DNA of 64,000 bases from an uncultured Bacteroidales bacterium (GCA_963702415.1 CAVPCP010000025.1:29973-93972), one strand, 5' to 3'; positions 29,468 to 62,556 are shown, counted from the stretch's first letter. The notes: generated from the sequence alone by a model not told the origin. Program-made: numbers and translations.

Positions 29468-29532
29468 AGTAAATAATATAACTTTTTTATGGAATTCTGT
29501 AACACTTTCGGGTATCAAATGATTTAACTTTG
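29468..29532 (+). promoter_or_regulatory. regulon motif copy 1 (TATAA-N16-TGTAA-N22-TAACTTTG)
   Basis: Cores at 29477 and 29498, -7 box at 29525; upstream of the 29575 ORF. Confidence 0.7.
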
Positions 29533-29574
29533 GCCTGTTAGGTTCCATTTGTATCTCACATCATAAAAGGAAAA

Positions 29575-29820
29575 ATGAACGCTACAGAAATAAAAGAAAG
29601 GCTTAACAGACGGAATGAAGCGCTCAAACAGAAATTTACTGTCGCAAATGGTAATTCCATCAGGCCGAAAACAGAAAGACAATATGCGATTTTAAAACAG
29701 CTTCGCAATAAACTTGGTAAGTCAAAAGTTGAATTTAATAAGATTTTCGACCTCTATAAACATCTGCTTGGCCAGAAGAATCCGGGAGCCTTTCGCAGAA
29801 CGTCTCCACCTGAACAATAA
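29575..29820 (+). CDS. small protein with CsbD-like C-terminal helix pair; paralog of 55995-56207
   Basis: QYAILKQLRNKLGKSKVEFNKIFDLYKHLL aligns with KYEMLGNLRKRLGKSKEEFNRILEFYKHLL; both share the same promoter motif. Confidence 0.6.
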   Translation: MNATEIKERLNRRNEALKQKFTVANGNSIRPKTERQYAILKQLRNKLGKSKVEFNKIFDLYKHLLGQKNPGAFRRTSPPEQ

Positions 29821-29823
29821 ATC

Positions 29824-32959: not shown

Positions 32960-33520
32960 TTGAAAATCTACATTAAAAATATGGTTTGCATAAGGTGCCA
33001 GATGGCAGTTAAATCCGAGCTGGATAAACTCGGGTTGCATCACACTAAGGTTGAAATAGGTGAGACTGAAATCATGGAGGACCTTACACCAATGCAAATG
33101 GATAATCTGAGAAGTTCTCTTAAAAATATCGGGCTTGAATTGCTGGATGATAAGAAAAACATTATGGTTGAGAGAATAAAAACAATTATCATTGAACTGG
33201 TACACTATAATGAAGATCAAATCAAAACAAACCTTTCCGATTACCTGAGCGAAAAGCTCAATCACAATTATACTTATCTTTCTAATCTCTTTTCTGAGGT
33301 CAAAGGATCTACCATTGAGAAGTTTTACCTGTCAAATAAAATAGAAAGGGTAAAAGAGCTGCTTGTATATGGTGAGCTCAATCTTTCCGAAATTGCCTGG
33401 AAAATGCATTACAGCAGTGTTGCCCATCTGTCGAACCAGTTTAAGAAAATGACAGGTCTTACCCCATCGCACTTCAAAAATCTCAGGATCAAAAATCGCA
33501 CATCTCCGGAGAATGATTGA
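32960..33520 (+). CDS. AraC family regulator with N-terminal HMA-like CxxC domain
   Basis: IKNMVCIRC; YLSNLFSEVKG; LSEIAWKMHYSSVAHLSNQFKKMTGLTPS double HTH. Confidence 0.92.
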   Translation: MKIYIKNMVCIRCQMAVKSELDKLGLHHTKVEIGETEIMEDLTPMQMDNLRSSLKNIGLELLDDKKNIMVERIKTIIIELVHYNEDQIKTNLSDYLSEKLNHNYTYLSNLFSEVKGSTIEKFYLSNKIERVKELLVYGELNLSEIAWKMHYSSVAHLSNQFKKMTGLTPSHFKNLRIKNRTSPEND

Positions 33521-33536
33521 ATGATTTAACAGCAGT

Positions 33537-37065: not shown

Positions 37066-38400
37066 TTAGTTGGTTACAACCAGTTTCTGAGTATTTTGGG
37101 GTGTGTCATTTAGTCCCATTTGAACAAAATAGGCACCAGGTGAAAGATTTAAAGGAATTTGAAACTCCCTGACATCCCGATTCATTTTATCCTGAAAAAC
37201 AATACGCCCCGATAAATCAATGATTTTAATATAGTCAAGTATTAATGCCGGTTCATCTATCGAAATCTTAATATAGTGGAGTGCGGGATTCGGATATATC
37301 TTAACAGTTTGATCCTTGTTATTTGCTGCGAATACCCTTGCTCCCACCTGCCAAGTTCCATTCTGGGCTGTGGTTGCCGGATTAGCTGAACTCCATGTCG
37401 CATTTGTTGAAAGACCCGTTTGCCATTCAGGCCCTAAATTAGTCCCATGATCTAATCTTGATACTGGGACAAAACTGGTTGTATTCAGGAAATCAGGATT
37501 AACAACGACCGAATGTATATCATATCCCAGTTCCTGCCATTCTGCAAACGTTTTTACTGTACCACTGATAACAAACACAGGTGTGCCGGTTTCACAATAG
37601 AAAACATTATAATCGCTCTCAAAATCATTCAGACACCACGATTCTATCCTCACATTTGGAATCTGATTTTTCGTATAAAAAATATTGTTATAAATTCTGG
37701 TGCCAAGTGAAGGTGACGGAACTAATCTGTCGTTATTTGCATCTATATCTATTATGGATGCGGACCAATCAGAAAACTCATCATTATAAAAGGTATTATT
37801 ATACACATGAACACCATTAATACCCTTTATTCTCAGTGAGAGTCCTGCATTTTTTAAAATATTATAAGCAGCTCCTCCGGAGGTATATGTCATATTAAAA
37901 CCCTCATCTGACCCTGATTTAAACAATATCCCGTGAGGAGTTTTATCAAGATAATTATACTGAACTACTGAATTTATATTATAACCGGTAAATACAGCAT
38001 GTGTAATGCTGGAGGCGTCTGTTCCGTTCCATGTAAATTTATTGCCTGTTATTATCATCCCGTCAAGATTGTTATTCTGAGAATTTTCACCTTCATCTCC
38101 TGATTGTAACAAATAGCCGGTCGAATTTATTGATGTAATGGTGTTATTACGATAAGTGAATGCAGTGGGTTTACTTCTTTGAATATTTACTCCTTCCCAG
38201 GTTCCTGTATCTGTATTAATAATATAAGTCCCTTCTATTGTCAGAACAGTCTGTGCAGACAAAGCAGAACCTGTTATAAGAAATAATATTATGTATATCC
38301 TTTTCAGCAAATGCAAATCATAAGAATTATAGAACCGTAAGGCCAATATATCTATCAATGAGTGTCTCCTCTTCAGTGTTTTCATGATAAAAAATTCCAT
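37066..38400 (-). CDS. T9SS-secreted protein with parallel beta-helix repeats
   Basis: Asn-rich repeats (VYNNTFY, IYNNIF, SDYNVFY) and type A CTD IYPNPA...DLSGRIV...LSPGAYFV...KLVV; exact start uncertain. Confidence 0.85.
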   Translation of the reverse strand: MEFFIMKTLKRRHSLIDILALRFYNSYDLHLLKRIYIILFLITGSALSAQTVLTIEGTYIINTDTGTWEGVNIQRSKPTAFTYRNNTITSINSTGYLLQSGDEGENSQNNNLDGMIITGNKFTWNGTDASSITHAVFTGYNINSVVQYNYLDKTPHGILFKSGSDEGFNMTYTSGGAAYNILKNAGLSLRIKGINGVHVYNNTFYNDEFSDWSASIIDIDANNDRLVPSPSLGTRIYNNIFYTKNQIPNVRIESWCLNDFESDYNVFYCETGTPVFVISGTVKTFAEWQELGYDIHSVVVNPDFLNTTSFVPVSRLDHGTNLGPEWQTGLSTNATWSSANPATTAQNGTWQVGARVFAANNKDQTVKIYPNPALHYIKISIDEPALILDYIKIIDLSGRIVFQDKMNRDVREFQIPLNLSPGAYFVQMGLNDTPQNTQKLVVTN

Positions 38401-38416
38401 GAAAATTCCAACGATA

Positions 38417-38481
38417 TAAATGTAAACCCTTTAGATTCTGGAATCTTTACACAATTCCCTGACAGATTTACATAATTCACA
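38417..38481 (-). promoter_or_regulatory. regulon motif copy 2
   Basis: Reverse strand TGTGAATTATGTAA-N16-TGTAA-N22-TACATTTA; drives the 38400-33537 gene run. Confidence 0.8.
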
Positions 38482-38502: not shown

Positions 38503-38567
38503 TGTGAATGATGTAACTATTACCATGAAAAGTGTAACGTTGCCCGGAATTAAAGGACTCACCTTTA
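38503..38567 (+). promoter_or_regulatory. regulon motif copy 3
   Basis: TGTGAATGATGTAA-N16-TGTAA-N22-CACCTTTA. Confidence 0.8.
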
Positions 38568-38604
38568 CATCGTGAAAATTCATTCACAATTTAAAATTCA
38601 AAAA

Positions 38605-39093
38605 ATGAAAAAAGTATTATTAGTAATGGTTTTCGTTATGGGAGTTCTGGTTGTCAATGCGCAGGCAGGTCTGACTGATTTTGCCGGCACATGGACTTTA
38701 AATACGGAAAAAAGCACTCAGCCAAAAGACGGCATGAGAATGGGTGGCGGCAATTTCGTTGCTGTACAGGATTCTAATCTCCTGACAGTTGAAAGAACAG
38801 TGGCAGCTCAGGATGTTAACTCCACAAAAACGATTCTGAAATATACTCTGGACGGAAAAGAGAGTATAAACACATCAACAAGAGGCGACAGTAAATCAGT
38901 TGCAAACTGGTCTTCTGACGGAAAGTCTCTTACTATTGAAACCTCAAGAACCATGGATGTGAATGGTGAGCCCACTACAATGACATCAACAGAAGTGTGG
39001 GCACTTACTGACGTAAAAACACTAACAGTATCATCAACAAGACAGGGTCCAAATGGTGCAGAAATCACAAAGATGATTTATGATAAGGTATAA
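38605..39093 (+). CDS. secreted lipocalin/calycin-like beta protein, function unknown
   Basis: MKKVLL signal, DFAGTWTLNTEKS, YTLDGKE, WSSDGKSL. Confidence 0.7.
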   Translation: MKKVLLVMVFVMGVLVVNAQAGLTDFAGTWTLNTEKSTQPKDGMRMGGGNFVAVQDSNLLTVERTVAAQDVNSTKTILKYTLDGKESINTSTRGDSKSVANWSSDGKSLTIETSRTMDVNGEPTTMTSTEVWALTDVKTLTVSSTRQGPNGAEITKMIYDKV

Positions 39094-39220: not shown

Positions 39221-39285
39221 TGTAAATTATGTAACTTTTTTCAAAAGTTGTGTAATACTTATCCTTTGAAGGGTATCGACCTTTA
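39221..39285 (+). promoter_or_regulatory. regulon motif copy 4 (susC promoter)
   Basis: TGTAAATTATGTAA-N16-TGTAA-N22-GACCTTTA. Confidence 0.8.
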
Positions 39286-39309
39286 TGGTGTGATAATCCA
39301 TTCAGACTT

Positions 39310-42300
39310 ATGAGAAGTTTATTTGTGCTTTTCATTTCATTACTATGCGCTTTGCAGATAAATGCCCAGCAGGTGGTTACCGGGAAAGTAATGGATGACA
39401 AAGACACTCCTCTGCCAGGAGTTTCAGTTCAGGTTATAAACACACTCCGCGGAATCTATACCGGAATTGACGGTAGTTATACGATTACGGCACAGCCTTC
39501 CGATACGCTGGTTTTCAGAATGATGGGAATGACTACTCTTAAAGAGTTCGTCGGTAACAGAACTCTCATAAATGTCAATATGAATGTTGATACAAAGCTA
39601 ATGGAAGAGGTTGTTGTGATCGGCTATGGAAAGGTAAAGAAAAGTGACCTTACCGGCTCTGTAAGTTCTGTAAAAACTGAGGACCTGTTAAAAATAACTT
39701 CACTGAACCCTGCACAAAGTCTCCAGGGTAAGGCGACAGGGGTTCAGGTCAGCAGCACCTCGGGGGCACCCGGAGCAGGAGCTACAATAAGAGTACGTGG
39801 AGTAGGCACTTTTAACAACTCTTCTCCCATCTTTGTCGTCGACGGAGTTATCCTGGATGATATCTCCTTCCTCAACACTTCTGATATAGCTTCCATGGAA
39901 GTTCTGAAGGATGCTTCTGCTACAGCTATTTACGGATCAAGGGGAGCAAACGGTGTAATTATCATCACAACAAAAACAGGGACAATAGGCCAGGAAAAGG
40001 CCAGTTTTAATTTCAGCTCGGAGTTTGGAATCCAAAGCCTGGCAAAAAAGATTGACCTGCTAAACGGGAGAGAGTTTGCTGAAATATCCAATGAAATCGT
40101 TCCCGGATCGTATAATAATGTGGATCTTGTTCCCAACACCGACTGGCAGGACCTGATATTCAATACCGCACCTGTTCAGAATCACCAGTTTTCAATTACC
40201 GGTGCAACCAAACTCACCCAGTATTATGTAGGTATTGGCATGTTCATCCAGGATGGGATCATTGATAAATCGAGTTACAATCGTTTCACGCTTAAGCTGA
40301 ACAATACATATAATTTAACTCCCCACTTCAGGCTTGGTAATAATCTGACTATTGCGCCTTTCAGGCAGGAAAATGCACCAAACGTCACCTATTCTGTTTA
40401 CCGTGCACAACCTTTACTGGAACCTTATTATGAGGATGGTTCCTATGCTGTAGTGTATAATGTTGGAAATCCTCTGGCCGATCTTTCTTATTCGAACAAC
40501 TTTGGGAAGGGAATTCGTGGTGTTGGGAATATTTTTGCAGAAGCAACCTTTTTGAAATCATTCACCTTTAAGTCAAGCTTTGGGATTGATGCTTCCTACA
40601 ATAAATACAACAGCTTCACTCCGGCTTATACCGTATATAATCCCGACGGAACCGCTTCCCAGCAGCAGAATGTTCTCAGCGATATATATAAAGGAAATTC
40701 TGAAAACCTTAACTGGCTCTGGGAAAACACACTCAATTTCAATAAAATCTTCAACGATATTCATGCCCTTGATATTGTTGCGGGTTATACCATGCAGGAG
40801 ACATCCTCTGAGTCAATGAGTATCTCCGGAGAGAACGTAATACGTGACGGGAAAGATTTCTGGTACATCAATCCCTCGTACATTTACGACCCTGCCAATA
40901 ATGTCAATAAGATCCAATCCATATATAACGGAGTGGATCCGGGCCAGTACTATTCAATGATCTCCTACTTATTCAGGGCCAATTATACTCTGAGAGACAA
41001 ATACATTCTAACCTTTACATTCAGGCGGGACGGTTCATCAAAATTTGAAAAAGAAAACAGGTTTTCCAATTTCCCTTCGTTTGCAGTCGGATGGAACGTG
41101 GGGAGAGAAGAGTTTATGAAGTCGATCCCTTTTATTTCGAGCCTGAAAGTCAGGGGCAGCTGGGGCATTATTGGCAATGAGAAGATCAGCTATTATGACC
41201 GTTACTCGAGAGTTCAGTCAGACCTGCTCGCAGTGTTGGGGAATCCGGATGCTCCCCTGCCCGGAGCTTCCTACGGTAAGAACGGTAATCCTGACCTGAA
41301 GTGGGAGAGCACCACCCAGACAGACCTGGGAGCAGAGATTGGATTTTTTAATAACAGGTTGACGAGTGAGTTTGATTATTATCACCGTAAGACAGATGAC
41401 ATTCTTGTTGAACTTTCCACTCCTGGTCATCTTGGAAACGGACAGGGACAAAAAGTACGGTATAATGCTGCTTCGGTATTGAACAGCGGATTCGAATTTA
41501 ACCTGAGCTGGAAAGAAAGCAGCGGCGATTTCAATTACAAGATAGGAATTCTCGGATCTACCATTCATAATGAAGTATTGAGCATCGGTGGTAGTAACAG
41601 CGGAGTAGATTCTGTTCTGATCGGAGGCTACCTGGGTGACGGCAGACCTGTAACACTTAGCCGCGAGGGCTTACCTATCGGGGCTTTCTACGGATATAAG
41701 ACAGATGGCATCTTCCAAACCAATGAAGAGCTTGATGATTATCCTCACTCTTCACAGGCAGAAGCAGGGGACCTCCGGTTTGTCGATGTTAACAACGACG
41801 GGATATTGGACGGGCTTGACAGAACTTACATTGGATCACCTATACCAAAGCTTATTTTTGGATTCAATGCTGAGGCTGAATACAAGGGAATTGACTTTTC
41901 TTTAGATTTTCAGGGGCAGACTGGTAACAAGATTTTCAATGGGAAGGAAGTTGTCAGGCCTGATCCATATAACTTCGAGCAACACGTCTTCGACCGGTGG
42001 ACCGGTCCTGGAACCAGCGATAAGGAACCAAAACCGTCGTTTGGAGGATATAATTACACCCCTTCCGACCGGTTCATTCAGGATGGTTCATTCGTCAGAC
42101 TAAGGAGCGTGACTTTGGGTTATACCATGCCTTCTTCACTCATTAAGAAAGAGTTAATACAACAATTAAGGGTATATATCAAAGGATCTAACCTCTTTAC
42201 CCTGAGCAAATTCACAGGGTACTCCCCGGAAATTGGAAGCTACGATGTGTTATCCAACGGGATTGATTTTGGTATTTACCCCATTACATCAACATATTCA

Positions 42301-47281: not shown

Positions 47282-47346
47282 TGTGAATGATGTAATTAGT
47301 TTCAAAAGTTATGTAACACTTATCAGGTCAGATATGACGATCTTTA
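47282..47346 (+). promoter_or_regulatory. regulon motif copy 5
   Basis: TGTGAATGATGTAA-N16-TGTAA-N22-GATCTTTA. Confidence 0.8.
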
Positions 47347-47382
47347 TCGTTTAAAAATTCATCCCCGGTAAAATACAATTAA

Positions 47383-49008: not shown

Positions 49009-49350
49009 TCAGTTGACAGGCAGTAAATCCAATCCAACAAGAACCCGTTCTCTATCTGAGAGATCACCGATTATCTTGCGAACAGGTACCGGCAATTTTC
49101 TTACTAATGTTGGTAAGGCAAGGATCTGGTCCTCGTTACCCAACTGTGGATTTATCAATAGGTCAATTACTTCAATGGAATATTTCCCCTTCAATTGTTC
49201 TTCACATATTTTTTTCAGATTTGTAAATGCGGTAAGAGCTTTTGGTGTTTGTCCTGCAACATATAAACGAAGCATCCACTTATCATTTTCTGTTTTATCA
49301 GGTTTTTCTTTTTTAATTTTTTTATCTGAATTTTCCTTCTTTGATTTCAT
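49009..49350 (-). CDS. kaiB: KaiB family protein
   Basis: [41 protein letters not shown]. Confidence 0.95.
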
Positions 49351-49366: not shown

Positions 49367-51102
49367 TTATCTTTTCAATTTGCTTGCAGTACTTTTTTTA
49401 ATATCAGCTTTTCTGCTGACTGCCATTTCTATTTTATCCTGTTCCAGTCGTTTAATCATATCTTGTTCTGTTCGTATCATTTTAATAGCTTCGGATTCTT
49501 CCGACTCAAAATCGGCATTCAAGGAAGCAATCTGAGCTTCCATTGCCTTGCGTTTTCGTTCTAATTCACGTTTTTTATGTTCAATATCATGCTTATGCGT
49601 CAACACTTCGGCATTTTCAAGAGCTTCCTGTGCAATACGGGCTGAGCCGGTTAATACTCCACTGGCACCAATATAAACCTCACGTAATTTTACACCATGG
49701 TTAGTCAGGATGAATTCGCGGATTTGGTTAGAGTTAGCCATTCCGCGCGATTTAAGAACATACATTCCCCTGTTCCGTTCACCGTTTAATTCAATATCAC
49801 GAAGCAATAACCAGGTATCTATCAGCGATGATATTCCGACATCAGAACTCTCCAATGTACTATCGCCGGAAGTCAGGCTGGTAAACAATGCTGTTATTTG
49901 ATTCAACTTAAGAAAATCAACAATACGCATTAACATCGTTTTTACTTCGTTCTCTTTATCACCAACAAAGAAAGTATTTATTGGATCCAGAATAACAATA
50001 TCAGGTTTGAAATGCTTTTACAGCTTTGTGAGTTACAGCCAGATGCATTTCAAGACCATAAAATGTTGGCCGGGTTGCCTGAAATTGTAAAAGTCCTTTT
50101 TGCACCCAGGTCTCTAATTTTATACCTATAGAACGCATATTGCGCATTAACTGGTTTGGAGATTCCTCGAAACAGAAATAAAGAACACGTTCACCTCTTT
50201 TACATGCAGCTTCTGCAAAGTGAGCTGCAATGCTCGTTTTTCCTACTCCCGCAGTACCGGAAACAAGTACGGTGCTGCCGCGGTAATAACCTTTCCCTTC
50301 GAGCATTGTATCAAGTTCAGTTATCCCACTTGAGATTCTTTCGTTTGATACAATATGTTCTAATCCTAAAGAAGTTACCGGTAATACTGAAAAGCCATTT
50401 TCATCAATCAGAAATGGATACTCATTTGTTCCATGCATTGAACCACGGTATTTTACAACCCGTAAACGGCGTGTAGAAGTCTGTTCCGTTACCCGATGGT
50501 CGAGCATAATGACACAATCTGAAACATATTCTTCCAAACCTTGCCTGGTATAAGTCTCTTCTCCACGCTCTCCCGTAATGATTGCAGGTAACACCTTTAT
50601 CTTTTAACCAGCGAAATAACCGCCGCAGTTCAGCGCGTAAGATAAGTTGGTTCGGCAATCCGGCAAACAGTGATTCAATGGTATCCAAAACAACACGTTT
50701 TGCCCCAATCGAATCAATTGCATAATTAAGCCGTATGAATAAGCCTTCCAGATCGTATTCCCCGGTTTCTTCTATTTCACTGCGCTCAATATGAACGTGT
50801 TCAAGTACAATTTTTTTATGTTTAATAAGGTCTTCCAGATCAAAACCGAGCGAAGCAACATTTTTGGTTAATTCTTCATTGGTTTCTTCGAATGACATAA
50901 ATACACCCGGTTCGTTAAACTGAGTTGTACCACGTACCAGAAACTCCATTCCAAAAAGTGTCTTTCCGCATCCTGCACCACCACATACGAGGGTGGGTCT
51001 GCCTGTTGGTAATCCACCGCCAGTTATTTCATCAAACCCCTGAATTCCCGTCGGAGATTTGGGGAGATTTTTATTTAAAATTTTGTGCTCTGTCTTTTTC
51101 AT
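49367..51102 (-). CDS. kaiC: double-domain KaiC (2 frameshifts, near 50585 and 50005)
   Basis: CI: TGIQGFDEITGGGLP, GGAGCGKT, SFEE, RVVLDTI, EEYVSDCV; CII: GTAGVGKT, FEES, ISSLIDTWLLLR, KSRGMANSNQIREF; C-terminal coiled coil. Confidence 0.95.
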
Positions 51103-51201
51103 TGATCTTTATATAGCCACAATATATAGTTATAGTCATAATCTGTTCAGTGGCAACGAGTTGATATTTAAGGCCTATTCTATTTTAAGAAAATCAATCT
51201 T

Positions 51202-51266
51202 TAAAGATTTAATTATTTTTTGAGATATGAATTACATAATTATTGAAAAATGTTACATAATTCACA
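51202..51266 (-). promoter_or_regulatory. regulon motif copy 6 (kaiC promoter)
   Basis: Reverse strand TGTGAATTATGTAA-N16-TGTAA-N22-AATCTTTA. Confidence 0.8.
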
Positions 51267-51423: not shown

Positions 51424-51488
51424 CGTGAATTATGTAATATTTGCCGGGAATTGTGTAACTCTTCTGTTCCTGCCTGCCCCTAAATTTG
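51424..51488 (+). promoter_or_regulatory. regulon motif copy 7 (hybrid kinase promoter)
   Basis: CGTGAATTATGTAA-N16-TGTAA-N22-TAAATTTG. Confidence 0.82.
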
Positions 51489-51570
51489 TGTACTGCCATT
51501 CATTTAGAATTTAAATGAATGATTTGTTAATTATTTCGATTGATTGTCAACTCAATCTAAAATATTCAGT

Positions 51571-53556
51571 ATGGTAACACACAGCCTACAGGAATCCCGA
51601 TATGCCAGAAGCCTCATAGAGGCAAGTCTTGATCCATTGTTCACAATTAGTCCCGAAGGGAAAATTACTGATATAAACAATGCTTCGATAGACATAACAG
51701 AAGTAACCCGCGAGAATCTGATCGGCACAGATTTTTTTGAATACTTTACAGAACCTGAAAAAGCACGTGAAATTTATAAACAAGTATTCACTGAAGGTTT
51801 TGTAGCCGATTACCCTTTAACCATACGCGACGGCAAGCTTACTGAAGTATTGTTTAATGGCTCGGTTTATAAAGATGAGCGGGGAAAAGTGATTGGTGTT
51901 GTTGTTGTGGCAAGGGATATTACCGACCATAAAAGAGTTGAGAAAGAATTGAAGGAGGCTAAAGTGAATGCTGAGTCTGCAACGCAAATCGCCGTAGTAG
52001 CACAAAGTAAAGCTGAAAGCGCCACACACATTGCTGAAGAAGCTGTGAGATCCAAGCAACAGTTTTTGTCGAACATGAGCCATGAGATCCGGACACCAAT
52101 GAATGCAATTATAGGGTTTACAAAAGTATTACTGAAATCAGAACTCGACACAAAACAGAGAGAGTATTTAAACGCCATTAAGATGAGTGGTGATGCTTTG
52201 ACAGTTTTGATCAACGACATTCTCGACCTTGCAAAAGTGGATGCCGGGAAAATGATATTTGAGCAGATACCTTTCAAAATGGATGCGTCAATATCTGCCA
52301 TGATTCATTTGTTTGAAACAAAAATTCAGGAAAAAAATCTGCTTTTGATAAAAGAATATGACAATAAAATTCCGAAAGTATTGATTGGTGATCCCGTTCG
52401 TCTGCATCAGATCATCTTGAACCTGCTAAGCAATGCGGTTAAGTTTACATCAAAGGGGAAGGTTACTATGAGCGTGAAATTAATCAGTGAAGATGAGGAG
52501 AAGGTAATAATTGAATTTTCAGTTACTGATACCGGAATCGGGATCCCGGAAGACAGACTTGGTCATATTTTTGAGAACTTTCAGCAGGCATCCAGCGAAA
52601 CTGCAAGGTTGTATGGAGGTACAGGCCTGGGACTTGCCATTTCTAAACAATTGGTAGAATCGCAGGGGGGGAGCATTACTGTAAAAAGTAAAATGGAAGA
52701 AGGCTCAATGTTTAGGTTTGTTTTACCATTTCAGAAAACAGATGCTGAGGTCGAGTTAGAGAAGGTGATGAATATTCTGAATACCAGAGTTCAAAATATT
52801 AAAGTACTGGTTGTTGAAGATATAGCTCTCAATCAATTACTGATGAAAACACTCTTAGACGATTTTGGATTTAAACTTGATATTGCTGACAATGGAAAAA
52901 CAGCTATAGAAAAACTACAGAATAATTCGTATGATATTATTTTAATGGACCTGCATATGCCTGAGATGAACGGTTTTGAAGCAACCGAATACATTCGCAA
53001 CAAAATGAATTCTCAGATTCCAATAATCGCTTTAACTGCTGATGTAACTACTGCTGATTTAAGAAGATGCACAGCTGTAGGAATGAATGATTATATCTCA
53101 AAACCTCTTGACGAACAATTATTATACGGTAAAATACTTAAATTGTTAAAGATAGTCGACCTGTCAAAGGATAGCCAAATGCCGCCGGTGAAGACAAGAA
53201 TTACCAATTTGACTTATCTGAACCAACGTACTAAAGCCAATCCGGAACTCATGACGGAAATGATTGGGCTTTATTTGAAGCAGACACTCCCATTGATAAG
53301 CAAATTGAAACAAAGCATGAACAATAATGACTGGAATTCGGTGTATGAAGCTGCTCATAAATTGATTCCTTCATTTTCAATAATGGGCATAAACAAAGAT
53401 TTTGAAGAGACTGCAAGAAAAATTCAGGAATATTCGAATACAAAAAAGCAACTTAAGGAAGTGCCTGAAATGGTTCTGCAACTTGAAACCGTTTGTTCCA
53501 AAGCATGCGAAGAACTGGAAGAAGAGTTAAATATCATCAAAAAATCCAAAGGATGA
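51571..53556 (+). CDS. cytoplasmic PAS hybrid histidine kinase (PAS-HisKA-HATPase-REC-Hpt)
   Basis: YARSLIEASLDP PAS, FLSNMSHEIRTPMN, NAVKFT, DTGIGI, GGTGLGL, ILMDLHMP, AAHKL; no TM segment. Confidence 0.93.
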   Translation: MVTHSLQESRYARSLIEASLDPLFTISPEGKITDINNASIDITEVTRENLIGTDFFEYFTEPEKAREIYKQVFTEGFVADYPLTIRDGKLTEVLFNGSVYKDERGKVIGVVVVARDITDHKRVEKELKEAKVNAESATQIAVVAQSKAESATHIAEEAVRSKQQFLSNMSHEIRTPMNAIIGFTKVLLKSELDTKQREYLNAIKMSGDALTVLINDILDLAKVDAGKMIFEQIPFKMDASISAMIHLFETKIQEKNLLLIKEYDNKIPKVLIGDPVRLHQIILNLLSNAVKFTSKGKVTMSVKLISEDEEKVIIEFSVTDTGIGIPEDRLGHIFENFQQASSETARLYGGTGLGLAISKQLVESQGGSITVKSKMEEGSMFRFVLPFQKTDAEVELEKVMNILNTRVQNIKVLVVEDIALNQLLMKTLLDDFGFKLDIADNGKTAIEKLQNNSYDIILMDLHMPEMNGFEATEYIRNKMNSQIPIIALTADVTTADLRRCTAVGMNDYISKPLDEQLLYGKILKLLKIVDLSKDSQMPPVKTRITNLTYLNQRTKANPELMTEMIGLYLKQTLPLISKLKQSMNNNDWNSVYEAAHKLIPSFSIMGINKDFEETARKIQEYSNTKKQLKEVPEMVLQLETVCSKACEELEEELNIIKKSKG

Positions 53557-53987
53557 AGGAAGATACTAAAATATTGCTTTTCCTGGTTGATGATGATGCT
53601 TTGTTCTTAAAATCATTGGAGATAGAATTTGGAGATAATACTGAATCTGTTATACAAACATATGCGACAGGGGAGCTCTGTCTCGAAAATATAACACAAA
53701 ATCCCGATGTTATAATTCTGGATTACCATCTTAACAGTGTTGATAAAAATGCAATAAACGGGCTGGAAACACTCGACAGAATAAAAAAAGTCAATCAGAC
53801 GATACCTGTCGTGATGCTCTCCTCGCAGGATAAGATAGAGGTGGCAGTGAATTGCATGAAACACCAGGCTTATGATTATATTGTTAAAAGTGAAACTGCT
53901 TTTATCCGGTTGCAGAAAACCATAACCACCATTTTTCATTATCAGAAATTAGAAAAGGCATTAAGCTGGTATATGGAGAAGATGTAA
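53553..53987 (+). CDS. single-domain response regulator
   Basis: ATG 53553 overlaps the kinase stop (ATGA); FLVDDD, IILDYHL, MLSS, YDYIVK. Confidence 0.9.
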   Translation: MKEDTKILLFLVDDDALFLKSLEIEFGDNTESVIQTYATGELCLENITQNPDVIILDYHLNSVDKNAINGLETLDRIKKVNQTIPVVMLSSQDKIEVAVNCMKHQAYDYIVKSETAFIRLQKTITTIFHYQKLEKALSWYMEKM

Positions 53988-54002: not shown

Positions 54003-55844
54003 ATGTTGTTAAGGAAATTTTTCATACTTTTTTTTGTTACAATTTCAATAAGTGAATTTGCCAATGCACAGCAGGACAGTGTCAAAACAGATTCAACTCA
54101 GCTGTACAATAATATAGAATCCTATTCGAAGCGAAGTAAGTTTAACGGATTTATTTACCGGTTGATTTTTAAACCGGCTGCGACCGACTCAACAATTAAA
54201 GCAGCTAAAAGGAGAGCTTATAAAAAGCTGCTTCAAAATCAATACAACACCTTTGAAGGAAAAATCATCCGCAATATCGATATAGAAACTCTGGATCCTT
54301 TTGGATACTCAGTCTCTGATACCACGGTTAAAAGACAGAATATCTTATCCAAAGCAGGGAATTGGATGCATATAAAATCACAAGGTATTACGATCAGAAA
54401 TCTCTTGCTTATCCGTAAGAATCAATCTTTCAATACATTACTTGTGAAAGAATCGGAGCGTTTGATCCGCAGCCAGAAATATGTGCATGATGTTTCTTTT
54501 AATATTATAGCGGCTGGGGCAGGATCCGATTCAGTAGATATACTTATTCGTGAACTGGATAACTGGAGCATCATTCCGGAAGGATTTCTTATGACTTCAA
54601 AAATCAATGCCGGGTTGACTGATAAGAACTTTTTGGGGACCGGTCATGAATTCCGAAATGTATTTTCAAGGAATTTTATAGGGGAAATAAATTCCTTTAA
54701 TACATACTATTCTGTTCCAAACTTTCGTAACTCATACATCAGCACTAAGTTGCATTTTGGTTTTGACGGCTATGGAAATTACGCAAGGAGTGTTATCATT
54801 GACCGTCCTTTCTTTTCCCCGTTAGCTAAATGGGCAGCTGGTGTAACTTTAGCTTCTCAAACCAGAAAGGATTCCCTCCAGGATATAAATTCGGTTTATG
54901 TTCCTGTAACTTTGAAATTCGGGACACAGGATTACTGGGCAGGTAAAGCACTGCATCTTTTTAAAGGCAGCTCAGAAGAGGCCCTTGTAACCAATTTAAT
55001 CTTGGCCGCCCGATATCTGCATATACGATATACTGAAGAACCACCCGAGCTTTTGGATCCATTTCATAATTATTCCAGCGAAGACTTTTTTCTGGCTGAA
55101 GCCGGAATTTCCACAAGGAAATATGTACAGGATAAATACATCTTCCGATTCGGTATTAAAGAAGATGTACCAATCGGCAGCGTATACTCCTTAACAGGAG
55201 GTTACCAGATTAAGAATAATACTGGCCGGTTGTATTTCGGTTTGCGGGTCTATTTTGGGAACTATTACGAATGGGGATTCCTGAGTTCCAACTTCGAATA
55301 CGGAACATTCTTTAAAGCATCACATACCGAACAGGGTGTAGTGACAGCAGGCGTAAATTATTTTACCGGGTTATTTGAAATCGGAAAATGGAAATTCAGG
55401 CAGTTTGTTAAGCCACAGATGACGGTTGGCATTAACAGGTTTTCAAGTGATAGCCTGACGCTTAATGACAAATATGGCCTGGATGGATTTAACAGTCGCG
55501 TATTGTCGGGAACTAACCGCATTCTCTTCACTTTACAGACTCAGTCATACGCCCCGGGGAATTTAATCGGATTCCGTTTTGGGCCTTTTATTTCCTATTC
55601 GCTCGGCATGCTTAGCGATGCAGAAACAGGATTTAAAAACAGCAGAGTATATTCACAGATCAGTTTGGGGGTCCTGATTAAAAACGAGAACCTGATCTTT
55701 AACCCTTTTCAGATTTCCATCTCTTTTTATCCATTAATCCCGGGAACCGGACAGAATGTATTTAGGGTGAACTCATTTAAAACAACTGATTTTGGTTTCA
55801 GGGATTTTGAAATTGGGAAACCCGGACAGATGATGTATCAATGA
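54003..55844 (+). CDS. Omp85/TamA-like outer-membrane protein
   Basis: Signal; POTRA-like ESERLIR segment; DNWSI, DKNFLGTGH, RPFFSP barrel motifs. Confidence 0.65.
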   Translation: MLLRKFFILFFVTISISEFANAQQDSVKTDSTQLYNNIESYSKRSKFNGFIYRLIFKPAATDSTIKAAKRRAYKKLLQNQYNTFEGKIIRNIDIETLDPFGYSVSDTTVKRQNILSKAGNWMHIKSQGITIRNLLLIRKNQSFNTLLVKESERLIRSQKYVHDVSFNIIAAGAGSDSVDILIRELDNWSIIPEGFLMTSKINAGLTDKNFLGTGHEFRNVFSRNFIGEINSFNTYYSVPNFRNSYISTKLHFGFDGYGNYARSVIIDRPFFSPLAKWAAGVTLASQTRKDSLQDINSVYVPVTLKFGTQDYWAGKALHLFKGSSEEALVTNLILAARYLHIRYTEEPPELLDPFHNYSSEDFFLAEAGISTRKYVQDKYIFRFGIKEDVPIGSVYSLTGGYQIKNNTGRLYFGLRVYFGNYYEWGFLSSNFEYGTFFKASHTEQGVVTAGVNYFTGLFEIGKWKFRQFVKPQMTVGINRFSSDSLTLNDKYGLDGFNSRVLSGTNRILFTLQTQSYAPGNLIGFRFGPFISYSLGMLSDAETGFKNSRVYSQISLGVLIKNENLIFNPFQISISFYPLIPGTGQNVFRVNSFKTTDFGFRDFEIGKPGQMMYQ

Positions 55845-55894: not shown

Positions 55895-55958
55895 TGTAAA
55901 TCATGTAAATCTGTATTGGAATTCTGTAACATTTCAGGTGTCAACGGATTTATTTTTG
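55895..55958 (+). promoter_or_regulatory. regulon motif copy 8
   Basis: TGTAAATCATGTAA-N16-TGTAA-N21-TATTTTTG. Confidence 0.78.
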
Positions 55959-55994
55959 CCTGATGGATATTCATTGTTAATTGATTTGAAAAAA

Positions 55995-56207
55995 ATGAAT
56001 TCAACAAAATCAAATTTAATCCGGAACAGCAGGAGAAGCGGGCTCAGACAGAATCCGGTTGCCATAATTAACAATCAGGTTTCAATCGAAGAAGAAAGGA
56101 AATATGAGATGTTAGGAAACCTGCGTAAAAGGCTTGGCAAATCAAAAGAAGAATTTAACAGGATCCTGGAGTTTTACAAACACCTCCTTGAAAACAGAAC
56201 CCTGTAA
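55995..56207 (+). CDS. small protein with CsbD-like C-terminal helix pair; paralog of 29575-29820
   Basis: MLGNLRKRLGKSKEEFNRIL; the ATG at 55995 lies downstream of the promoter motif. Confidence 0.6.
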   Translation: MNSTKSNLIRNSRRSGLRQNPVAIINNQVSIEEERKYEMLGNLRKRLGKSKEEFNRILEFYKHLLENRTL

Positions 56208-56251: not shown

Positions 56252-56316
56252 TGTGAATTATGTAACTTATTACCACAATTGTGTAACACTCCCTGTGCAG
56301 GAGAGAGATACCTTTA
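56252..56316 (+). promoter_or_regulatory. regulon motif copy 9
   Basis: TGTGAATTATGTAA-N16-TGTAA-N22-TACCTTTA. Confidence 0.82.
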
Positions 56317-56434
56317 CCATTAGTAACTTAATTAAAGATAAAACTGGTACCAATGAACATTATTTCCTTTAAAAAACCAAAATCCAATAGAGTTGCACTT
56401 TTGGTGGATCTATTAATAATTAAAATCAAATAAG

Positions 56435-56755
56435 ATGAAAAAGATTGTTCTTTGTTTTATGGTGACATTCATGTCCCTGGCGTTTGTCCCGCTTCAATTA
56501 AAAGCTGTGACACCTGAGGAACCTTCCTCCATACCTGCTCCAAAACCTGTCGATTCAGCAGAAGTTAAAATCATGTTGCTAAGGTTAGATGAAATAAAGG
56601 CAACGGATATGTCGAATATGAAATCGGAGGAAAAGAAAGAGTTACGAAAAGAAGTAAAGTCAATCAAACATAATCTGAGAGAAGTAGGCGGCGGCGTATA
56701 TCTTTCAGTTGCTGCAATTGTTCTGATTATAGTTCTGTTAGTTGTTTTACTGTAA
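56435..56755 (+). CDS. small exported protein with C-terminal TM helix
   Basis: Signal, RLDEIK..D.S......EKKELRKEV, GGVYLSVAAIVLII. Confidence 0.75.
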   Translation: MKKIVLCFMVTFMSLAFVPLQLKAVTPEEPSSIPAPKPVDSAEVKIMLLRLDEIKATDMSNMKSEEKKELRKEVKSIKHNLREVGGGVYLSVAAIVLIIVLLVVLL

Positions 56756-56774: not shown

Positions 56775-56930
56775 ATGGGAAATTTACTTTATGTTGTAGC
56801 AGTTGTCCTTCTTATAGCATGGGCAATCGGATTTGTAGGCTTTCATGCCGGAGGTATCATACACGTTCTCCTTGTTATTGCAATCATTGCAGTAATACTC
56901 AGGGTTATTCAGGGGAAAAAAGTCATCTAA
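56775..56930 (+). CDS. lmo0937/DUF5670 family small membrane protein
   Basis: Below the track cutoff; translates to MGNLLYVVAVVLLIAWAIGFVGFHAGGIIHVLLVIAIIAVILRVIQGKKVI*. Confidence 0.88.
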   Translation: MGNLLYVVAVVLLIAWAIGFVGFHAGGIIHVLLVIAIIAVILRVIQGKKVI

Positions 56931-57697: not shown

Positions 57698-57702
57698 AAT
57701 CC

Positions 57703-58101
57703 ATGCAAAAAATAGCATCCGTTGCCGAGCTTAAAAATGCAATTCAAATATTGGAAGTTGAACAATCTGAAAAGGGACAGCTTCTGAAAGAACAATTCTT
57801 CATTACTTATAAAAGCTTAAGGCCTGGCAATTTTCTCAGGAGCACGATGAAAGATATTTCTACGTCGCCATATCTGTTCGATAACATCTTAGGCGCTGCC
57901 ATGGGTTTGGTTTCCGGATTTATATCAAGAAAAATATTTATTGGTGCATCAGGCAATAAACTAAAAAAGCTCATCGGTCATGTTTTGCAGTTTGGCATTA
58001 TAAACTTTGTTGCCATGCATCCCGGAGCCATTAAAACAATCGGCTGGTCTATAATTCAACGTTTTACCCGCAAAAATAGAATGAATTCCATAAAGCCGTG
58101 A
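57703..58101 (+). CDS. hypothetical protein of the ytxH/holin-like cassette
   Basis: 132-aa ORF tightly coupled to both neighbours. Confidence 0.65.
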   Translation: MQKIASVAELKNAIQILEVEQSEKGQLLKEQFFITYKSLRPGNFLRSTMKDISTSPYLFDNILGAAMGLVSGFISRKIFIGASGNKLKKLIGHVLQFGIINFVAMHPGAIKTIGWSIIQRFTRKNRMNSIKP

Positions 58102-59204
58102 CAGATGAGAAATTAAAATTGCCGCTTATCATAAAAGCATCAGTTTCTGTCATTGGCCTGGTTGCCCTGTTTGCTGTCTTATACATCGCGAAGGGAATTA
58201 TTTTACCGGTCGTTTTCGCAGTCATTTTTGCTATTGTACTCCATCCGCTTGTAAATTTCTTCGTTGATAAAAAAATAAACAGGGTATTAGCTATTGTAAT
58301 CACTCTGTTCCTTACCTTATTAGTCATTACTTCTTTCGGCATTCTCTTCTTTTCTCAGGCAAGCCGGTTCAGCGAATCATGGCCGATACTGATCGATAAA
58401 TTTACCGAAATGTTCAACCAGACTATCACATGGGCTTCGGGTTATTTCGATATAAACGCACAAAAAATCCATGAATGGTTTGCAAATACTAAAAGTCAAC
58501 TCATCACTTCCAGTACCGCTGCCATAGGGAAAACACTGGTATCTGTCGGCAGCCTTTTAGTGGTTTTGTTTTTAATCCCTGTCTACGTATTTATGCTATT
58601 ATTTTACCACCCCATCTTAATTGAGTTTATACACAGATTATTTGGCACCAGCAACCGGATTCAGGTTAACCTTATTGTAACTAAGACCAAAAGCGTTATT
58701 CAACGTTATCTTATAGGACTGGTTATCGAGGCTGCAATAGTAGCAACACTGAATATAGTCGCTCTTTTACTGCTTGGAATTGAATACCCTGTACTGCTTG
58801 GTATTTTTGGCGCATTGGTCAACGTAATTCCATATATCGGAGGAATTATCGGGGTTGCAGTATTTATGCTGGTCGCGTTAATTACCAAATCGCCAGTTTA
58901 CATGATTTATATTATTGTGATTTATTCAGTCGTTCAGTTCATAGACAATCACTACATCGTTCCCAAAATAGTTGCCTCTAAAGTAAGAATCAATGCCCTT
59001 TTCGCCATAATAGCCGTAATTGCAGGGAATGCTTTATGGGGAATACCCGGTATGTTCCTTTCCATTCCCCTCCTTGCCATTGTAAAACTTATTTGCGACA
59101 ATATCGAACCATTGAATTCCTGGGGATTTCTATTGGGCGACACAATGCCTCCATTGATAAAAATAAAACCACTTTTTAAGAAGGCAAATATTAAATCTAC
59201 ATGA
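58098..59204 (+). CDS. AI-2E family transporter
   Basis: Multi-TM; IPYIG, QFIDNHYIVPKIV, WGIPGMFLSIP. Confidence 0.92.
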   Translation: MTDEKLKLPLIIKASVSVIGLVALFAVLYIAKGIILPVVFAVIFAIVLHPLVNFFVDKKINRVLAIVITLFLTLLVITSFGILFFSQASRFSESWPILIDKFTEMFNQTITWASGYFDINAQKIHEWFANTKSQLITSSTAAIGKTLVSVGSLLVVLFLIPVYVFMLLFYHPILIEFIHRLFGTSNRIQVNLIVTKTKSVIQRYLIGLVIEAAIVATLNIVALLLLGIEYPVLLGIFGALVNVIPYIGGIIGVAVFMLVALITKSPVYMIYIIVIYSVVQFIDNHYIVPKIVASKVRINALFAIIAVIAGNALWGIPGMFLSIPLLAIVKLICDNIEPLNSWGFLLGDTMPPLIKIKPLFKKANIKST

Positions 59205-60253
59205 TAGAGGTTAAACGAGAAGGAATTATACTAAATAAAACTTCTTTGGAATTTGAAAACGAGGGAGTTCTGAATCCCGCAGTAATACGTGAAGGAGACA
59301 GCGTTCATCTTTTTTATCGCGCTGTTCAAAAAGGAAATCATTCCAGCATCGGTTATTGCAGGCTGGATGGTCCGCTGACAGTTGCTGAACGATGGGATAA
59401 ACCGTTCATCCTTCCTGAATTCGAATATGAATCACAGGGTGTTGAAGATGCCCGCATTGTTAAAATTGATAACACTTATTTTTTAACATACACGGGATAC
59501 GATGGGACAAATGCCCGAGGGGCCTTAGCTACTTCAAAAGATTTAAGGCATTTTAAAAAAAAGGGGATCATTGTCCCTCCAATCACATACGCAGAGTTTG
59601 TATTCCTTGCTGAATCTGCCAATAAAGTGAATGAGAATTATTACCGTAATCATAAGTTTTATTACCAGGAAGCCGATCCTGAAAAAAAAATGATGCTGTG
59701 GGATAAAAATGTAGTTTTCTTCCCAAGGAGAATAAATGGGCAACTTGTGTTTCTTCACCGGATAAGACCAGGTATTCAGATTACTTTCGTAAAACGCCTA
59801 AAGGAACTGACCAAAGAATTTTGGATGAATTACTTCATGGACCTCCAGGAGCATATTGTGCTTGACCCCATTCATGGACATGAATCAAGTTACATAGGCA
59901 GCGGCTGCCCCCCAATTGAAACAGAACACGGGTGGCTCCTGATTTACCATGGAGTTGAGGAAACCGACAAAGGGCTTGTATATTCTGCATGTGCAGCTCT
60001 GCTCGATCTTAATGAACCTTCCAGAGAGCTTGCACGGCTTCCTTATGCATTGTTTTCTCCGGAACTTGAATGGGAGCTGCATGGCGAAGTAAATAATGTA
60101 GTTTTCCCTACCGGTACATCAATATTTGGAAGTACTTTATTTATTTATTATGGAGCTGCAGACACACACGTTGCATGCGCTTCGGTGAATTTAAAGGAAC
60201 TGGTAGCTGAATTATTAACATTTACCACAAAAGATGAAAAAGAAATCCGTTGA
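59201..60253 (+). CDS. GH130 family glycosidase/phosphorylase
   Basis: GVLNPAV, LFYRA, GVEDARI, TYTGYDG, DKN, WLLIYHGV, NVVFP, YYGAAD. Confidence 0.88.
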   Translation: MIEVKREGIILNKTSLEFENEGVLNPAVIREGDSVHLFYRAVQKGNHSSIGYCRLDGPLTVAERWDKPFILPEFEYESQGVEDARIVKIDNTYFLTYTGYDGTNARGALATSKDLRHFKKKGIIVPPITYAEFVFLAESANKVNENYYRNHKFYYQEADPEKKMMLWDKNVVFFPRRINGQLVFLHRIRPGIQITFVKRLKELTKEFWMNYFMDLQEHIVLDPIHGHESSYIGSGCPPIETEHGWLLIYHGVEETDKGLVYSACAALLDLNEPSRELARLPYALFSPELEWELHGEVNNVVFPTGTSIFGSTLFIYYGAADTHVACASVNLKELVAELLTFTTKDEKEIR

Positions 60254-62496
60254 ACTGTCTGAAATTCTGTTTATTACTTCATATCCGCCGAGGGTATGCG
60301 GTATAGCTACCTATTCGCAGGATCTGATAAGAGCACTTGATAATAAATTCAGTAATTCATTATCGATAAAAGTTTGTGCATTGGAATCAGGAGAAAAGGA
60401 TTTCCGGTATGGCAGCAAAGTAAAGTATATCCTTAAAACCTCAATAGCAGATGAATATGAAAAACTGGCATTAAAAATCAATAGTGACAATTGCATTAAA
60501 ATAATCCTGATCCAGCATGAGTTTGGCTTTTTTAAAGTTCAGGAACAATCATTTCAGCAATTCTTAAATAAACTTTCGAAGCCTGTTGTCATTGTTTTTC
60601 ATACCGTGCTGCCCAATCCAAATAAGCATTTAAGGATAAAAGTCCGGAATATTGCAGATGCCTGCCATTCGGTTGTGGTAATGACAAATAATTCCATGCA
60701 GATGTTAACAGATAGCTATGGAGTCGGGAAGGAAAAAATAAAAGTCATTGCACATGGTACCCATCTGGTACAACATTTAAGCAAAGCATTCCTCAAAAAA
60801 GGATATGGATTAACGCACGTAAAGTGCTTACAACATTCGGACTGCTAAGTTCCGGAAAGAGTATTGAAACTACACTCAGAGCATTACCAGCTATAATAAA
60901 AACCAATCCTGATGTTGTATTTCTTATAATTGGCAAAACTCATCCTGAGGTTGTGAAAAGTGAAGGAGAACAATACAGGGAAAAACTTAAGGCCATAGTA
61001 AAGGCAAAAAAGCTAACCGGGCATGTAAAATTCATTAACAGATTTTTACCGTTGCCGGATCTTCTCGAATATTTACAGCTTACAGATATTTACCTGTTTA
61101 CCACCAATGATCCTAACCAGGCTGTAAGCGGAACATTTGTTTATGCCATGAGTTGCGGCTGCCCTATCATTTCTACACCAATCCCTCATGCAAAGGAAGT
61201 ATTGACAACAGATACCGGTATTATTTTTGATTTTCGTAACTCCCGGCAATTGGCAGATGGCGTTATAAGGTTACTTAATGATGAACCATTGCGAAGGAAT
61301 ATCAGTTCAAATACCCTTCAGAAAATAGTCTCCACAGCCTGGGAAAATTCTGCTGTTGCTCATGCTATGCTATTTGAAAAAATATCCGGTGGCACTATTT
61401 CAATACTATATAACCTCCCGGCTATCAACCTGAATCACCTGAAACTGATGACAACCAATACAGGGATCATCCAGTTTTCAAAGATCAATCAACCCGATAT
61501 AAGTTCTGGCTACACCCTTGATGATAATGCAAGGGCACTGATTGCTATGTGCATGCATTTCAGAATGACAGGCGATAACCAAGAGTCTACGTTATATTAA
61601 ACTATATATCAGTTTTATAAGTCATTGTCTTCAGCCTGCCGGCGACTTTTTAAATTATGTGGATAAAAATAAAAGCTTTACGGGCCAGAACCAGGCTACC
61701 AATCTGGATGATTCTAATGGTAGGGCTATCTGGGCACTTGGTTATCTGGTCTCTGCAAAAGATATTCTCCCGGAAGAAATTATAACAGAAGCAGCTTCAA
61801 TTATTCAAAAAACACTGCAACATGTAGAAACGATAAATTCCACTCGGGCTATGGCATTTGCCATAAAAGGTCTGTATTACTACCATAATGCAATAAAGTC
61901 AACTGAGACATCTTAACCTGATTCAAACACTCTCAAAACGGCTGGTTCAGATGTACAGGCATGAATCGGTTGAAAAATGGGATTGGTTTGAAGGTTATCT
62001 TACTTATGCCAATAGCATTTTACCTGAGGCAATGTTATATGCCTGGTTGTTAACCGGAGAAACTATTTATAAAGATATTGCCATATCGTCGTTTAATTTT
62101 CTTTTATCCCAAACCTTTAATGAAAACGGAATAGAAGTAATTTCAAACAAAAACTGGCTTCAAAAGGGACATGTAGCAGGTAATTTTGGCGAACAACCAA
62201 TTGATGTTGCCTATACAATAATGACCTTAAGTAAGTTTTACGATGTATTTATGGACGAGGAGTACCGAATGAAAATGGAAACTGCATTCAACTGGTTTTT
62301 AGGGAACAACCGGCTGCATCAGATTATTTACAATCCATGTACCGGTGGTTGTTACGACGGGCTTGAGGAAACTCATGTGAACCTCAATCAGGGTGCAGAA
62401 TCAACAATAAGCTACCTGATGGCACGGTTGACAATCGAAAAGTACAAGATTCCGGAAAGGAAACCCTGCAGCCAGCCGGTGGCCGAAAAGCCGTGA
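60234..62496 (+). CDS. GT4 glycosyltransferase fused to an (alpha/alpha)6 domain (3 frameshifts)
   Basis: YPPRVCGIATY, QHEFG, FGLLSSGKSIE, QAVSGT..YA, GIIQF..GYTLDDNARAL, DSNGRAIWALG, WFE..LTYAN, GEQP, GGCYDGL..NQGAEST across four ORFs. Confidence 0.88.
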
Positions 62497-62556
62497 ATGA
62501 TGCAAATTATATCAATAAATATGTAACCTTTTAGCCTGGGCCTTTCCTTAACTTTC
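62492..62556 (+). promoter_or_regulatory. regulon motif copy 10
   Basis: CGTGAATGATGCAA-N16-TGTAA-N22-TAACTTTC. Confidence 0.72.

Follow-up and report, generated by a model that had tools for sequence, protein, structure and literature searches.

Among the described activator sites, those closest in layout to the system reported here are araI1-I2 and Pm, at which two direct repeats of ~16–17 bp lie 21 bp apart and the proximal repeat reaches the upstream promoter element. The housekeeping promoter of Bacteroidota consists of a −33 TTTG and a −7 TAnnTTTG element, the former ~19 nt upstream of the latter. To our knowledge, no equivalent of RpoS, SigB or EcfG and no dedicated sigma factor is known in this phylum, in which the coordination of general-stress or stationary-phase protection is poorly understood. 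Here, we describe a set of promoters built on two phased repeats, together with a short AraC-family gene as the candidate activator, in a 64-kb stretch of DNA from an uncultured Bacteroidales bacterium. This stretch, hereafter the window, is C25:29973-93972 of genome G000 (3.74 Mb, 27 contigs); positions without a contig name are counted from its first letter.

A first-pass annotation of the window had reported ten copies of a rigidly spaced motif and proposed a general-stress or stationary-phase regulon run by a single activator. Each of the ten was confirmed in the window sequence, in position and in strand (Table 1). Ten is thus the correct count for the window; as the size of the regulon it is too low, since the genome holds 29 copies. 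The observations comprise the set of sites with its geometry and conservation, the content of the genes behind it, and the co-occurrence and adjacency of a short AraC gene. We read them as 29 activator-dependent promoters on which AraC-type domains would occupy the phased repeats, with the short AraC protein and its paralogues as the activator, and we give this reading a probability of about 60%.

Genome-Wide Motif Set

In the window, the bare pattern TGTAA-N16-TGTAA occurs nine times against 0.28 expected, a count reached in none of 100 shuffles. Eight of these occurrences are copies of the motif; two further copies, at 29468 and 62492, escape the exact pattern because their distal core is a variant, ATAA or GCAA. 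The ninth occurrence, at 2163–2188, stands alone: the other conserved columns are absent, the weight matrix misses it, and it is probably a chance match.

A 36-bp weight matrix built from the ten window copies and run across the whole of G000 returned 29 sites scoring more than 26 bits; the best of the remainder reaches 14 bits. When a 66-bp matrix was rebuilt from these sites, the same 29 scored at least 39 bits and nothing else exceeded 10, a separation that is partly circular because the matrix derives from the same 29 sites. Sixteen of them lie on contig C25, ten inside the window and six just past its end; a cluster of six occupies 9 kb of C17, a divergent pair is located on C8, and C2, C10, C14, C15 and C24 carry one each. 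The matrix scan found no copy in window positions 1–29467, in agreement with the annotation, which had seen none in the first 29 kb.

The earlier proposal had been open to refutation by the frequency of the motif in coding regions. All 29 copies are non-coding: at most 8% of any copy is covered by open frames of ≥100 aa, and such frames make up 81% of the genome. As had been stated for the original ten, the copies point into genes. For 27 of the 29, a same-strand, ATG-started frame of ≥40 aa begins 81–352 nt from the start of the site; of the remaining two, one is followed by a frame of 29 aa and the other by a frameshifted paralogue.

Anatomy of the Promoter Unit

Column statistics over the 29 G000 sites revealed three conserved blocks separated by variable DNA, namely TGTGAATnATGTAAc at positions 1–15, AATTnTGTAAcAcTT at positions 26–40, and A(c)CTTT(a/g) at positions 59–65. 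A shift of 21 bp superposes AAT, TGTAAC and TT of the first block on the second, columns 5–7, 10–15 and 18–19 recurring at 26–28, 31–36 and 39–40. Therefore, the unit is a direct repeat of ~16 bp, AATnnTGTAACnnTT, of which the distal copy carries an extra TGTG extension. The core-to-core spacing is 21 bp, one double helical turn, in 29/29 copies, so that the exactness described for the original ten extends to the whole set. From the proximal TGTAAC to the third block, the distance is 22 nt in most copies. A distance of 21 nt reads better in three, namely the copy at 55895 and two copies outside the window; the first-pass annotation had given 21 bp for one of the ten.

The third block, AnCTTTr, is a −7-like box with A59 in 26 of the 29 copies and T62, T63 and T64 in 29, 29 and 26; position 65 is G in 10 and A in 14, and T58 is present in 14. 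A perfect TAnnTTTG was read by eye in five of the 29, and the boxes are, as previously described, mostly degenerate. TAnnTTTG itself is enriched on the sense strand upstream of the long frames of G000 (540 vs. 323). No −33 element (TTG or TTTG) is conserved ~19 nt upstream of the box in the 29 sites, where columns 36–38 read C-A-C/T; the TT at columns 39–40 is part of the repeat because it matches the TT of the distal unit. Position 72 is a purine in 22 of the 29 copies and never C, which fits a transcription start ~7 nt after the box. With such a start, which we infer from these columns, the repeats would be located at about −71 to −57 and −46 to −32.

At the presumed start, nine of the 29 copies carry GAAAATTCA with at most two mismatches, often followed by TTCAC (e.g., 38574–38582 and 47353–47361). 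It lies exactly at position 72 in seven of these nine; ~8% of random windows match at any of 26 offsets. This element may represent a 5′ leader common to paralogues or an additional site for a protein.

The unit resembles the sites of AraC at araI1-I2 and of XylS at Pm in that phased repeats lie 21 bp apart and the candidate protein carries the double helix-turn-helix of the family. The AraC-like geometry noticed in the first-pass annotation holds, at 21 bp, in every copy and is matched by a short AraC gene that co-occurs with the motif and adjoins it. In contrast to these systems, the promoters would here be of the Bacteroidota −33/−7 type, a domain of ~65 aa resembling HMA replaces the sugar- or effector-binding cupin, and 29 promoters stand in place of one catabolic operon.

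Conservation across Genomes

We looked for the pattern GTRAATNATRTAA-N16-TGTAA in 41 related genomes and used the reversed pattern as the control. It is present in 22 of them, with at least three copies in 19 (up to 25), and the reversed control gave one match in total. The carriers include three other families of the order (G033 with nine copies, G035 with five, and G025 with three), and no match occurs in five nearly complete genomes of the genus of G000. Of 300 additional genomes sampled from the phylum (≥90% complete), 22 had a match, four of them with at least three copies, and the control matched in two; with so few carriers, the system is patchy. Near-identical proteins occur in public records of metagenome-assembled genomes (MAGs) titled Bacteroidales.

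Twenty loci of relatives contain 69 sites of ≥35 bits, 59 of which have a downstream frame. Of these 59, 25 are followed by a homologue of one of the G000 frames that themselves lie behind a G000 site, and about a dozen more by AraC paralogues. The scan of related genomes, which had been suggested as a check of the regulon, thus finds the set conserved.

Co-Occurrence and Adjacency of a Short AraC Gene

The only short AraC gene found in G000 encodes a protein of 186 aa (Table 1). Its start codon is likely TTG at 32960, which restores the first strand, KIYIKNMVCIRC. Full-length homologues of this protein (E < 1e-25) were sought in the same 41 genomes. They are present in 18 of the 19 genomes with three or more copies, in two of the three with one copy, and in two of the 19 with none. 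We regard this distribution as strong circumstantial support, not as a statistic.

Among the genes scanned in the G000 clusters, no DNA-binding domain besides AraC and MerR_2 was found; adjacency was therefore compared across regulator families in five motif-rich genomes (G010, G008, G007, G033 and G035), counting genes within 1.5 kb of a copy as adjacent. HTH_18 frames of ≤232 aa are adjacent to a pattern match in 13 of 18 cases and, with matrix sites, in 15 of 18, the other three not having been scanned. For longer HTH_18 (AraC) frames, the count is 0 of 25.

In 14 of 20 homologue loci, a same-strand copy starts −5 to +110 nt from the end of the AraC open reading frame (ORF); in nine of these it starts 4–5 nt before the frame end, with the stop codon in or next to the distal TGTGAAT. 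A 65%-identical homologue from another order (G326) likewise abuts a motif copy. In G000, a remnant of the distal repeat spans the stop codon of the candidate activator gene (Table 1), the place at which relatives have an intact copy. Upstream of the gene, 13 of 28 AraC homologues have a same-strand copy at 88–430 nt, often the copy behind a first AraC gene, which suggests self-activation or a paralogue cascade. The first-pass proposal of a single activator is thus supported in so far as the AraC-like geometry is matched by a short AraC gene that co-occurs and is adjacent; that there is only one is uncertain because relatives carry 2–6 AraC paralogues.

The overlap of stop codon and repeat can be read to the base in several relatives: the stop TGA of the AraC frame is the TGA inside the distal TGTGAAT in L017, L020, L021, L022, L024, L025, L026 and L030.

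Predicted Structure of the Candidate Activator

The 186-aa protein matches HTH_18, the AraC-type double helix-turn-helix, with 55.8 bits (E = 5.6e-15; cut-off 33.6), and no NCBIfam model reaches its cut-off on it. At least 8000 public homologues are found at E ≤ 1e-10, under generic names only. A structure model calculated from 22 homologues (mean pLDDT 87) consists of a β-α-β-β-α-β domain, a long helix, and seven helices. The helical part matches the AraC-type DNA-binding domains of YesN, AraT, GadX, AdpA, MarA and SoxS, with TMt values of 0.69–0.81. The N-terminal 69 residues were also modelled alone (pLDDT 83), and the structures that match them are nearly all HMA metallochaperones or metal-binding domains (TM 0.56–0.73, E = 0.007–0.05), so that the models place an HMA-like fold of ~65 aa at the N-terminus. 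Its MxCxxC motif, MVCIRC in the G000 protein, is kept in most close orthologues, and the second cysteine is ≥90% conserved. A thiol or metal switch in this modelled domain is a lead, not a result. Prediction of a homodimer gave a score of 0.17, which is no answer and weighs neither for nor against binding.

Small AraC-family proteins that activate dispersed protective genes are known from Escherichia coli, i.e., SoxS, MarA and Rob as well as GadX and GadW, and activation of this kind is proposed here. Indeed, the modelled DNA-binding domain of the candidate matches the structures of MarA, SoxS and GadX. The tandem AraC paralogues of relatives, one of which would be driven by the site type of the other, are comparable with gadX-gadW. 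MarA and SoxS differ in binding a single asymmetric box as monomers and in having no sensor domain, whereas two phased repeats and an N-terminal domain with MxCxxC are present here. With CopZ, Atx1/HAH1 and MerP, the N-terminal domain shares the predicted β-α-β-β-α-β fold and the position of MxCxxC in the first loop. It differs from these HMA proteins in being fused to a transcription-factor domain and in scoring below the Pfam HMA cut-off; moreover, one paralogue group keeps only the second cysteine of the putative metal-binding loop.

Genes behind the Promoters

The genes that follow the copies outside the window encode an Fe/Mn superoxide dismutase (SOD), a Transgly_assoc (GlsB-type) protein, a dodecin, a PRC-barrel protein, DUF6766, MlaE/MlaF, and a YegS-type lipid kinase. 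A membrane protein of the Thivi_2564 family is also encoded behind the motif, with a ribosome hibernation factor (S30AE) next in order; further targets are OmpA with an outer-membrane barrel together with a YkuD L,D-transpeptidase, and DnaJ with a MerR_2 protein. A small CsbD-type protein resembling YjbJ of E. coli, on another contig, scores 7e-13, below the model cut-off. The divergent pair on C8 drives, judging from position, CsbD-like/DUF4397 genes and the SOD gene. Three paralogous genes for lipoprotein-like proteins of 132–155 aa each have a motif copy in front. For the 155-aa member, relatives were found at one locus, that of a Bacteroidales MAG (L010), where the motif is again upstream of the orthologue.

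Judged from family names, these targets are mostly what a general-stress or stationary-phase programme would contain, and SOD, GlsB-like, dodecin, PRC-barrel, hibernation-factor and DnaJ-type proteins, among others, bear out the content expected in the first-pass annotation. The regulons of SigB (Bacillota), RpoS (Gammaproteobacteria) and EcfG (Alphaproteobacteria) hold the same kinds of genes, i.e., CsbD-, GlsB- and OmpA-type, PRC-barrel, dodecin, hibernation factor, SOD and CbpA-type DnaJ. However, those regulons use promoters of alternative sigma factors, whereas here a pair of activator sites precedes a box of housekeeping type, and no association with sigma genes is seen.

In the window (Table 1), the earlier labels lmo0937, AI-2E, glycosyltransferase and KaiBC hold, and those of "CsbD-like" and "YtxH" have no family-model match. 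Several small targets have no match to a family model, among them the 81-, 70- and 106-aa frames behind copies 1, 8 and 9, to which these two labels had been given. The 162-aa secreted protein behind copy 3 has a weak DUF1579 match. Behind copy 4, the genes that follow the SusC-like receptor extend to a glucoamylase-like gene at 45153–47129. Copy 6 is followed, after KaiB, by a PAS/coiled-coil protein (47863–48591). The hybrid histidine kinase behind copy 7 contains PAS, HisKA, HATPase, receiver and Hpt domains according to the family scan, and a stand-alone receiver (53505–53987) and a 613-aa signal-peptide protein (54003–55844) lie behind it. Behind copy 9 are an lmo0937-family gene (56775–56930, 2.6e-16), an AI-2E transporter (58098–59204), a GH130 gene (59201–60253), and pieces of a GT4 gene (60234–61600). 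The small membrane ORF of copy 10 is followed by an ORF at 63000–63458 and a GT4 gene from 63539.

Table 1. Positions of the motif copies and of the candidate activator gene in the window.
Feature	Position	Strand	Basis and context
Motif copy 1	29468–29533	+	Matrix; faces 81-aa ORF 29575–29820
Motif copy 2	38416–38481	−	Matrix; faces 444-aa protein 37066–38400 (−) with type IX secretion system (T9SS) C-terminal sorting domain
Motif copy 3	38503–38568	+	Divergent from copy 2; faces 162-aa secreted protein 38605–39093
Motif copy 4	39221–39286	+	Faces SusC-like TonB-dependent receptor 39310–42324
Motif copy 5	47282–47347	+	Faces 155-aa lipoprotein-like protein 47383–47850
Motif copy 6	51201–51266	−	Faces KaiC fragments 50422–51102 and 49367–49936, then KaiB 49009–49350
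Motif copy 7	51424–51489	+	Faces hybrid histidine kinase 51571–53556
Motif copy 8	55895–55960	+	21-nt gap to box; faces 70-aa ORF 55995–56207
Motif copy 9	56252–56317	+	Faces 106-aa membrane protein 56435–56755
Motif copy 10	62492–62557	+	Weakest in window, 40 bits; faces small membrane ORF
Candidate activator, 186-aa AraC-family gene	32960–33520	+	HTH_18 match, model, co-occurrence
Distal-repeat remnant	33512–33526	+	12 of 15 bases match; spans stop codon of the AraC gene; no proximal repeat behind

Several genes of the set are interrupted. The KaiC gene at 49367–51102 (−) is split into three overlapping frames (50422–51102, 50001–50594 and 49367–49936), and the GT4 gene at 60234–61600, the small membrane ORF after 62557, and the CsbD-like frames at C24:163 and C17:116538 are likewise broken at A-runs. 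Breaks of this kind look like homopolymer errors in the assembly, with real pseudogenes as the alternative. Just upstream of copy 1 lies a P-type ATPase fragment (27918–29237, −) with E1-E2_ATPase and HMA domains. The ORF preceding copy 10 (61951–62496) ends in a TGA that is the TGA within the distal TGTGAAT of that copy (62492–62496). Against Rfam, the window yields no match at or above a gathering score.

Three products were considered as the regulator and rejected. The 613-aa protein has a signal peptide, no family match and, by eye, the look of an outer-membrane protein; the PAS/coiled-coil protein that follows KaiB lacks a DNA-binding domain; and an extracytoplasmic function (ECF) sigma factor encoded with a multi-pass membrane protein on C8 shows no consistent association elsewhere. 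A 147-aa protein in a motif-driven operon of C17 (L002:6452–6895, −) has no family match and appears, by eye, to combine an N-terminal winged helix with a C-terminal membrane anchor.

Alternative Explanations

Several points weigh against the short AraC protein as the activator of a stress regulon. The copy upstream of the G000 AraC gene is degenerate (<12 bits). G023, although 98% complete and carrying three copies, yielded no homologue, and G032 and G039 have homologues of 40–43% identity and no pattern match. Co-occurrence overstates the support because related genomes are not independent. The adjacency comparison covered LytTR, AraC HTH_18 and Sigma70_r2 genes only, and its outcome also fits AraC as a conserved target rather than the regulator. 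As for the putative sensor, a second paralogue group has SxxC (or other residues) rather than CxxC; the Pfam HMA model stays below its cut-off of 24.8 bits, with 16.4 bits in one paralogue only and no match for the G000 protein at E ≤ 5. Finally, the label "stress" comes from family names, several targets have no family, and the polysaccharide locus of SusC type is an outlier.

Another DNA-binding protein might bind the repeats, with AraC only a conserved member of the regulon. A response regulator fed by the hybrid kinase, with its Hpt domain, and the stand-alone receiver behind the copy at 51424 would be an example. The weak copy of the G000 AraC gene and the copies of G023 are in keeping with such an arrangement, and adjacency by itself cannot separate a regulator from a target. 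Yet AraC and MerR_2 are the only DNA-binding domains found in the scanned G000 cluster genes, homologues occur in 18 of 19 motif-rich genomes vs. 2 of 19 without the motif, and direct repeats with a 21-bp period are the geometry of AraC-type sites. We consider this alternative unlikely, while giving it more weight than those that follow.

It is improbable that the blocks are −35 and −10 elements of an ECF-type or other alternative sigma factor running a general stress response. TGTAAC has a likeness to ECF −35 elements, the targets resemble those of sigma-run stress regulons, and the ECF gene rejected above (with its membrane protein, L003:370–1477 (+), corresponding to C8:291369–292476) lies 3 kb from the divergent C8 copies, with another ECF gene 0.4 kb from a copy in G007. 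However, the distance from TGTAAC to the box is 22 nt, and columns 53–58, where a −10 element would sit after a spacer of 16–17 nt, carry no information. Farther upstream, at 21 bp, there is a second block of 15 bp; only one of 114 Sigma70_r2 matches in the five genomes is adjacent to a copy, and the box resembles the housekeeping −7 element that is enriched upstream of G000 ORFs.

Sigma70_r2 matches occur three to five times each in G010, G008 and G007 in frames of ~287 aa, the size of the primary sigma factor of Bacteroidota; G000 has one long Sigma70_r2 frame, of 299 aa. The additional frames of the relatives may be alternative sigma factors resembling group 1 or copies carried by mobile elements.

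A LytTR-type response regulator is very improbable as the protein on the repeats. LytTR sites are 9-bp direct repeats with 12-bp spacers and thus share the 21-bp period seen in all 29 copies; moreover, G000 has 11 LytTR matches and a kinase operon belongs to the regulon. However, the conserved unit here is ~16 bp rather than 9, and none of the 50 LytTR matches in the five genomes is adjacent to a copy. Least probable of all, the repeats would be the operator of a repressor whose release turns the genes on. Nothing specific speaks for this role. It is at odds with sites that overlap neither the −7-like box nor the presumed start but are located entirely upstream of the box, and with weak boxes and no conserved −33 element, the latter two being typical of promoters that need an activator.

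Proposed Mechanism and Significance

Under the reading that we prefer, activation by the short AraC protein, two AraC-type DNA-binding domains would occupy the two repeats and recruit RNA polymerase. The proximal repeat would take the place of the absent −33 element, the layout of a class II activator, and the weak −7-type box 22 nt after the proximal TGTAAC would complete the promoter. The activator would be the product of 32960–33520 and, in relatives, its paralogues; the motif in front of many of these paralogues may provide positive feedback or a cascade. The HMA-like N-terminal domain is the probable sensor, responding to thiol oxidation or a soft metal, and the output would be a general-stress or stationary-phase type of protective programme. 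We infer binding, activation, the start site, the signal and stress induction from sequence features.

By analogy, the mode of action would be class II activation of the AraC type, which is a known kind. What seems to be new is the domain architecture, the context of the promoters and the regulon. Full-text searches turned up no published account of the motif, of the regulon or of a regulator combining HMA and AraC domains.

A broader proposal is possible, and we hold it tentatively: in some Bacteroidota, a family of small HMA-AraC activators, rather than an alternative sigma factor, may govern a general stress response. In these, the CxxC motif would sense oxidative or metal stress directly, tandem paralogues with the same site would amplify their own expression in a cascade, and KaiBC and the hybrid kinase would feed timing or other signals back.

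How Bacteroidota coordinate such protection is made a testable question by a defined promoter design, a gene set of 29 promoters, conservation in several families, and a concrete candidate for the regulator with an unusual putative sensor domain. Owing to their rigid spacing, the promoters could moreover serve the genetics of Bacteroidota as attractive parts that are defined and switchable. Because the family of the candidate is large, with at least 8000 homologues, a function for it would annotate many genomes.

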